Position numbers and translations under genes: made by a program. Under the pieces are notes generated by a model. That model saw only the letters and a list, made by a program, of their open reading frames with translations. It was not told where the DNA came from and ran no database searches. A stretch of 64,000 nt of DNA from Eledone cirrhosa (taxonomy: Eukaryota): the NCBI GenBank assembly GCA_964016885.1, contig OZ024740.1, forward strand, positions 88,102,001 to 88,166,000, given 5' to 3'. This document shows positions 20,116 to 21,432 of the stretch, in pieces (the stretch's first letter is position 1; every line of letters begins with the position of its first letter).

Positions 20116-20460
20116 TATATATATATATATATATACATATATATATATACATATATACATATACATATATATATACATACATACATACATACATACATAC
20201 ATACATACATACACACATAGATTCAAGGGATGACAATTTCTTTTCTTTTACAACCTTGCCACCAGGAAGGTGGCCGGTCAAAAAAATATACTCGAAATTA
20301 AGAGAAAGAGAAAACATATATATATATATATACATACATACATATATATATACACACACACATATATATATATATATATATATACATACGTATATATATA
20401 TACATACATACATACATACATACATACATATATATATATATATATATATATATATATATA
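20116..20460. repeat. Compound (TA)n/(TACA)n microsatellites
   Basis: Seen directly; interrupted by ~100 bp of unique sequence at 20218-20315. Confidence 0.9.
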
Positions 20461-20523
20461 TATGAAAGACGTACAATAAGAAAATTTTAAAAATTAAAAA
20501 TCAACTTACTTACTAACATTTTC

Positions 20524-20605
20524 ACTCCAACTAATTAGTTTCTGTATGGGGATAAATATAGTTACATAATATAACCATAGAGAATTCCATACGTCATCAG
20601 GAAGT
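20524..20605 (-). ncRNA. Type I hammerhead ribozyme, inverted copy
   Basis: ACUUC-CUGAUGA-C-GUAUGG...CCAUAC-A-GAAA-C-UAAUUA-G-UU-GGAGU on the - strand. Confidence 0.7.
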
Positions 20606-21056
20606 CTATTCTCAGCTTTTTAATTTTTAATTTTTAAAATTTTCTTATTTTACGTCTTTCATATAATTGTTCTGCATCCCCCTGCATAGAACCACAAAGG
20701 TACTAAGACATAACATATATATTTGCTAGCATAGGTGAACATCTGTACACACATGTTGGTAAATGTACTAATTCTCTATATTTATCTCCAAATTATTTGT
20801 TGAGCAAAACTTGCCAAAATTTACTGCTGATTCATGGTAGTAGTAGGCTCTTGTCATAATACCACCCCGCTCCTAACTGATTAACCTCAGTGTCACGTGA
20901 TTGATTCTTTAGAATCTGCCACTGACCAGAGGCAGTGAATCTTTTCAGTGCTCTGGAATTTAGTCCTCGCTAGCTCTGTTCCATCCACTGAATTATTATT
21001 ATTTTTATATGGGTTCCTAGTGTCCGCGCATTGCCTGGGAACTTAGCTGAGAATAG

Positions 21057-21138
21057 ACTCCCTGATGACGTATGGAATTCTCTATGGTTATATTATGTAA
21101 CTATATTTATCCCCATACAGAAACTAATTAGTTGGAGT
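21057..21138 (+). ncRNA. Type I hammerhead ribozyme with extended helix II and palindromic helix III
   Basis: ACUCC-CUGAUGA-C-GUAUGG..UAUGGUUAU/GUAACUAUA..CCAUAC-A-GAAA-C-UAAUUA-G-UU-GGAGU. Predicted cleavage after 21133 (GUU); C.A mismatch at the base of helix II. Confidence 0.75.
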
Positions 21139-21309
21139 GAAAATTTTAGTAAGTAAGTTGATTTTTAATTTTTAAAATTTTCTTACTTTACGTCTTTCAT
21201 ATAATTGTTCTGCATCCCCTGCATAGAACCACAAAGGTACTAAGGCATAACATATATATTTGCTAGCATAGGTGAACATCTGTACACATATCTTGGTAAA
21301 TGTACTAAT

Positions 21310-21432
21310 TCTCTCTCTCTCTCTCTCTCTCTCTCTCTCTCTCTCTCTCTCTCTCTCTCTCTCTCTCTCTCTCTCTCTATATATATATATATATATATAT
21401 ATATATATATATATATATATATATATATATAT
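21310..21432. repeat. (CT)n(AT)n microsatellite
   Basis: Seen directly. Confidence 0.97.

Follow-up and report, generated by a model that had tools for sequence, protein, structure and literature searches.

A protein-free hammerhead retrozyme family of Eledone cirrhosa with two fixed insertion ends, probably pasted by a PLE enzyme in trans

Metazoan non-LTR retrozymes are, in the accessible parts of their descriptions (PMC7229834; Li et al. 2026, 10.64898/2026.07.22.740005), non-coding tandem units of low GC with one type I hammerhead ribozyme (HHR), thousands of copies and a highly self-paired monomer, and their dependence on PLEs has been proposed before (PMC4209133, PMC7229834, 10.64898/2026.07.22.740005). 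Eight of the nine retrozyme dimers reported as tested in the accessible text of Li et al. showed no cleavage (10.64898/2026.07.22.740005). EN+ PLEs are described, in the available portions of PMC8557442 and PMC3846280, as tandem copies with a head-to-head inverted copy, a tail confined to one end, truncated 5′ ends, a (TA)n target and an HHR in the repeat, and the PLE protein Poseidon_Ac nicks and extends both strands in AT-rich DNA, with reverse transcription starting at two internal sites of the RNA, one at either boundary of the tail (PMC11167929, accessible text). The minimal HHRs of PLEs have an extra nucleotide between A9 and G10.1, a conserved G10.1-C11.1 pair, a long helix II, a short helix I and a palindromic helix III, occur in opposed pairs, and come with a proposed circle template (PMC4209133, accessible text). 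Chlamys elements such as MRC1 are non-autonomous PLEs that are multicopy, head-to-tail and inserted in microsatellites, and as far as the accessible text of PMC8557442 and PMC9977147 goes they generally share 3′ sequence with autonomous partners, while the N-terminal-EN PLEs (Chlamys type) are without canonical HHRs. How PLEs make their tandem, inverted and tail structures, and how animal retrozymes are copied, stand as open questions in the accessible parts of this literature (PMC8557442, PMC11167929, 10.64898/2026.07.22.740005).

We analysed a window of 64,000 nucleotides of E. cirrhosa DNA (the whole stretch considered, whose numbering is used throughout), which contains such an element at 20459-21312. 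We read it as a member of a protein-free HHR retrozyme family with two fixed insertion ends that is pasted by a PLE enzyme in trans (probability about 0.8), and we regard the family as a new one among the non-LTR retrozymes, with a PLE as its likely mobiliser. The element class is already known and the window copy is ordinary; its interest lies in a counted end-pairing rule and a template-dependent (CT)n run. The features listed above for metazoan non-LTR retrozymes, EN+ PLEs and the minimal HHRs are found here too, PLE dependence and circle template again as proposals, and nicking and extension of both strands from two internal starts, as in Poseidon_Ac, would apply here as well; also shared are the non-autonomous, head-to-tail multicopy organization and the microsatellite target of the Chlamys elements. 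The unit of 538 nt exceeds the 170-400 nt given in PMC7229834 and lies inside the 51-972 nt of 10.64898/2026.07.22.740005, and in contrast to the retrozymes as the accessible parts of these two papers present them, the family has a C·A pair at the base of helix II, a palindrome of 12 nt in helix III, two-arm insertions with fixed ends A and B, an added (CT)n run, and no matching pLTR among the PLE families sampled. Unlike the EN+ PLEs of PMC8557442 and PMC3846280 (accessible text), it has no ORF and either of its arms may be long and contain several units; its tail of 110 nt, compared with 30-40 nt in the PLEs described in the accessible literature and ~60 nt in our control family, counts against the PLE link. 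In the accessible account of Poseidon_Ac the start site was equal between strands and both arms of a single event were left unscored, whereas each event here has one A and one B, and priming, again unlike Poseidon_Ac, occurs with AUA/UAU microhomology to the target (PMC11167929). The HHR differs from the minimal HHRs, as far as the accessible text of PMC4209133 goes, in a second extra nucleotide (A) before G12 and in a helix III of 3 bp plus tetraloop, or 10 bp as a dimer. The Chlamys comparison ends at a type I HHR and at the failure to find an autonomous partner with shared 3′ sequence among the PLE families sampled here. Two further assignments were rejected, namely an autonomous PLE, given that no ORF with RT and GIY-YIG was found in the unit or joined to an arm of the loci inspected, and a plant LTR retrozyme, which would have a type III HHR in LTRs, a 4-bp TSD and both ends fixed, where we see a type I HHR, variable 5′ ends and microsatellite flanks.

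The window copy is preceded by a left (TA)n/(TACA)n microsatellite (20316-20458; the TA-rich run spans 20316-20463), which is the target side of end A. The inverted arm (20459-20617, minus strand) holds a whole HHR, is 5′-truncated 88 nt upstream of the cut site and ends at the fixed end A (20459), and the direct arm (20618-21312, plus strand) comprises 1.3 units of 538 bp, starts ~25 nt downstream of the expected position of an upstream cut site and ends at the fixed end B. Between end A in this arm (21203) and end B lies the 110-nt tail (21204-21312, plus strand), with two predicted hairpins of which the second has compensatory changes, and this is likely the enzyme-binding and priming region. 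There follow a (CT)34 run (21310-21378, plus strand, also read as (TC)34), a putative slippage product on the template CUCU at end B, and a right (TA)27 microsatellite (21378-21432), the target side of end B. In a self-comparison of the window, 20459-20617 and 21045-21203 align in inverted orientation over 159 nt with 97.5% identity, and 20620-20775 recurs directly at 21158-21312 with 96% identity and a period of 538, in agreement with an earlier note on this DNA that had described an inverted copy plus 1.3 tandem units of ~538 bp. The order of flanks given there, (TA)n to (CT)n, is right on the left side and needs amending on the right, where a (TA)n tract comes after the (CT)n; this (CT)n looks like a product of the element and not like a part of the target. 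An ORF scan found no frame of 100 aa within the 538-bp unit. The accessible text of Li et al. (10.64898/2026.07.22.740005) defines an ‘active’ copy by two consecutive complete HHRs, and the window copy has a single HHR on each strand; because of this it is unable to cut out a 538-nt monomer, and it is a product, not a monomer source.

In the HHR of the direct arm (21057-21138, plus strand), helix I pairs ACUCC (21057-21061) with GGAGU (21134-21138), the core consists of CUGAUGA (21062-21068) and GAAA (21120-21123), C21069 faces A21119, helix II is GUAUGG/CCAUAC with an apical hairpin, and the helix III palindrome AACUAAUUAGUU occupies 21122-21133, with the GUU site at 21133/21134. The HHR of the inverted arm (20524-20605, minus strand; C3 at 20600, predicted cut at 20529/20528) has an identical core and one C-to-U change that gives a G·U pair in helix I, and two complete ribozymes do point in opposite directions, as had been proposed, each with an intact core and a GUU site. 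Rfam left the HHR unmatched at E values up to 10, and its matches in the window are microsatellite artefacts. A C opposite A under helix II, with a G-C pair next to it, is present in all 14 aligned representatives, and one subfamily has A·A where others have C·A; the idea that C·A makes the HHR dead is therefore not supported, and the mismatch and the GUU site, once suspected as signs of decay, are both the family consensus. Across the 14 representatives, picked by hand from different subfamilies, 98.7% of HHR alignment cells are paired and 9 of the 17 pairs show substitutions in both partners (slid control structures pair 37-43%), values inflated by the relatedness of the sequences and by a structure that was read from them. 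In folding predictions a single motif has its CUGAU trapped by a helix III strand and forms helix III with p ~0.1, whereas two motifs paired through the palindrome are 9.6 kcal/mol better than the monomer and have the core CUGAU freed. This supports, as a prediction, the earlier suggestion of dimeric cleavage via the palindromic helix III, and the HHR may be a monomer-off, dimer-on switch.

In pairs compared within an insertion, the helix I 5′ strand and C3-G5 (21058-21064 and its copies) carry private substitutions at ~2.5 times the level of the upstream control (36 at 7 sites against 43 at 21 sites). The substitution total at helix I/C3-G5 equals the control rate (44/1281 vs 133/3843), and since only the private changes are raised no mutation hotspot is claimed there. 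The cut site is without a scar in 108 passes, a weak count, given that the patterns used to find copies ran across the site and insertions went unscored. Separately, a 4-nt AAGT repeat at unit +14 to +17 past the cut site (window 21148-21151) is lost in 25 of 112 passes; this loss is discordant in ~40% of comparisons within insertions and 35% between loci at any rank, while other common variants behave differently, and it seems to be produced afresh every time the unit is copied, shortly ahead of the cut site.

The pattern CTGATGA-N45-65-GAAACTAATTAGT gave 9,070 matches in the 3.0-Gb genome and none in the reversed control, so the HHR motif is not a chance occurrence, and a tail-hairpin pattern gave 10,884 against none. 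Looser HHR patterns and looser tail patterns returned, among the matches listed, only more subfamilies of the 538-bp unit and chance matches. Copies are head-to-tail tandem units whose arms reach ~3 units in the 170 loci of our end sample, with longer arrays elsewhere, and many other family members have two or more HHRs. Monomers of 510-560 bp form 12 clusters, of which the five largest are 5-22% apart with members ~1-3% from their own consensus. Folded as circles, monomers of five subfamilies have z scores of −5.2 to −6.5 (25 shuffles each), and 24 of 156 consensus pairs of this circular fold show substitutions in both partners, long-range pairs and the tail hairpin among them. The flanks of L001-L211 contain several other recurrent hammerhead families, whose palindromic helix III is shorter.

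Insertion ends were read in a sample of 170 loci (L001-L030 are the best full-length matches, the rest are pattern matches, mostly the first ones on contig C1), from which 145 distinct insertions were extracted. Simple two-arm insertions with both ends classed made up 68 of these, and every one combined one A with one B end (35 B+A, 33 A+B; p = 7 × 10−21) with no AA or BB pair among them; 47 were single-arm (23 A, 24 B) and 30, L074 with two A ends among them, were complex, nested or of unclassed ends, which tells against our reading to that extent. Ends A (21203) and B (21312) are 110 nt apart, 5′ ends spread over the whole unit, either arm can be longer, and most of 70 central junctions between arms fall within −7 to +5 nt. 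Circular permutation at the priming end, for which the earlier note had proposed a test, is not what we find: copies stop at two fixed sites and variation is confined to the 5′ ends. No TSD is readable inside the TA runs. An (AT)4+ tract is present at the 5′ flank too in 30 of the 47 single-arm copies, against 13.6% of background windows, and (TA)n is the insertion target. The paired A/B ends are a PLE signature, comprising a tandem, an inverted 5′-truncated copy and a tail at one end only; they fit the in vitro extension of both nicked strands from two internal starts (PMC11167929), and the earlier note had not made this link to PLEs. Insertion in two arms leaves opposed ribozymes as a by-product. 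A control autonomous RT+GIY-YIG PLE, represented by the 3′ fragment at 18360-19592 of the window, whose short and long ends are ~60 nt apart, combines a short with a long end in 5/5 fetched head-to-head pairs and 3/3 further loci with both ends; an autonomous PLE of the same genome thus follows the A/B rule in 8/8 cases.

The units of one insertion mostly share one template. Mismatch between units is 2.4-2.6% in register and 2.5-2.8% out of register within insertions, against 4.7-5.0% between loci, and common alleles in the window’s subfamily are discordant in 6-8% within insertions versus 38% between. Together with arms of more than one unit, these concordant units uphold the idea that the terminal redundancy was left by reverse transcription going more than once round a template that is circular or in tandem. 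Where a site is present in at least three copies, 73 derived variants are common to every copy, 171 are confined to a single one, 6 are shared only in register and 26 by other subsets; the subset-only sharing (32/276) counts against a pure monomer circle. Repeated copying of one monomer sequence would explain most of the unit sharing, and we lean slightly towards a circle over read-through of aged tandem units. The same PLE twin priming could also act on a linear read-through transcript of a tandem copy, with uncut internal HHRs, an HHR-cut 5′ end and no circle, which we consider rather unlikely. It would predict, for aged units, more divergence out of register than in register, and none is seen (p = 0.15-0.51 in three regions); the 73 variants in all copies against the 6 in register only, and the long-range covarying pairs across the whole monomer, also tell against it. 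The 6 in-register variants themselves fit it, a very young, homogeneous source would escape the register test, and uncut RNA is the dominant in vitro substrate of the anole PLE in the accessible text of PMC11167929, which counts against a circle. Moreover, of 61 arms reaching a second cut site, 42 read through and 19 stop before crossing it, with 5′ ends that lie 0-40 nt downstream of the cut, compared with 3.7 expected, and the direct arm of the window starts inside this zone; such stops fit a cut linear 5′ end, and a stall on structure would fit too. Some insertions (L149, L137) look mosaic, and the L240/L241 array (G000:C2:226738451-226742013), with six or more units of an older subfamily in alternating unit types, suggests a dimer template or later DNA duplication, its dimer period being a further point for the linear template.

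At end B, (CT)3+ runs of 4 to 42 units are present in 44 of 59 cases with the template CUCUAU and in 0 of 42 with CUUUAU, AUCUAU or other (p = 5 × 10−16; 7 of 108 B ends were unscorable). The simplest reading is reverse-transcriptase slippage at initiation, because (CT)n occurs only with the template CUCUAU. Slippage-made tails are known for some LINEs. No description of slippage-made start repeats in PLEs or retrozymes was found in the literature searched, in which most subscription papers were outside reach. That the enzyme did not make the run, which would instead stem from base pairing of CUCU with compound (CT)n(AT)n targets or from expansion of two CT units after insertion, we regard as improbable: a CT/AG run adjoins only 20 of the 855 background (AT)6+ runs, CT is also on the far flank in only 2 of the 44 insertions, and internal copies of site B stay short (63 read CTCTATATTT, 2 have a longer CT run). 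It draws on the microsatellite-rich genome and on annealing, which would also favour GA-ended primers on CUCU templates. A satellite-like spread at the DNA level, by unequal exchange and fold-back inversion with no RNA step, is very improbable and as a main route largely refuted by two fixed 3′ ends with random 5′ truncation, by copies dispersed on many contigs, by RNA-level covariation and by a window-copy centre without fold-back symmetry, even if long arrays (L240/L241, L217) could grow so and local amplification is proposed for arrays in the accessible part of 10.64898/2026.07.22.740005. A selected two-way cassette cutting transcripts of either strand at the window locus, for which the two intact cores would speak, is very improbable too, as inverted arms come in any length and often lack a complete HHR, the arms differ as much as ordinary copies do, and PLEs are known to leave opposed HHRs at distances of 100-700 bp as a by-product (PMC4209133, accessible text).

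At 18360-19592 (minus strand) the window holds the 3′ part of an autonomous PLE, young and very abundant, that ends in (TA)n, with a GIY-YIG domain and a Cys-rich linker resembling those of Neptune/Nematis types and a pLTR with a minimal HHR at 18595; its family has 30,961 candidates and frames that reach 1217 codons and start with a stretch rich in asparagine, and the tail of 60 nt extends into the ORF start. This neighbour and its family were rejected as the partner, having the target and end rule in common with the retrozyme and no unit sequence shared, and the 538-bp unit has no significant DNA similarity to the pLTR of the abundant autonomous PLE family. Three other PLE pLTRs, with different HHRs and different ends, were likewise set aside. 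No PLE ORF is joined to an arm in L001-L170 or L212-L241, nearby matches lying apart or having their own TA tail where inspected. Another partial-tandem repeat at 21855-22618 (plus strand; 147-nt redundancy, period 617) ends in (TA)n and has 72-81% relatives in L167, L030, L004 and L174; no convincing hammerhead was found in it, and it is possibly a ribozyme-less passenger of the same kind. The window further contains a 98-bp satellite array (31670-64000), with variant blocks recurring ~3.7-3.9 kb apart in places, and a broken non-LTR retrotransposon with an RVT_1 domain (5829-7974, minus strand; E = 2 × 10−14), and a transposon protein encoded nearby has its best match with a name in Octopus vulgaris (68%).

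The mechanism that we infer from the observed anatomy, end pairing, template sharing, covariation and dependence of (CT)n on the template would begin with transcription of tandem source copies, from which HHRs, predicted to be dimer-active, would cut out a ~538-nt monomer that is probably circularised. Two PLE RT/GIY-YIG molecules would dock as a dimer on the A-B tail and introduce a nick into each strand of a (TA)n tract; one nick would prime at site A and the other at site B of the same RNA species, each cDNA would run a variable distance, often beyond the HHR and round again, and short microhomology would serve to join the two cDNAs head-to-head. On the CUCU of site B the RT would probably slip, adding (CT)n. 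In its fullest form, which we put forward tentatively, a PLE RT dimer would sit on one 538-nt ribozyme circle and copy it from two fixed sites in opposite directions onto both strands of the cut (TA)n, for more than one round, with telomerase-like repeat addition producing up to ~40 (CT) units whenever the template is CUCU.

A short, abundant and ORF-free family leaves countable footprints, here a strict pairing of priming sites and one template per insertion, and the alternation of CUCUAU with CUUUAU/AUCUAU is a natural sequence control for slippage; from these footprints follow precise expectations that the in vitro assay already established for PLEs could address. If the fullest form is true, retrozymes would be a direct source of compound microsatellites in the E. 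cirrhosa genome, and their insertions would be an in vivo read-out of repeat addition by telomerase’s closest relatives.
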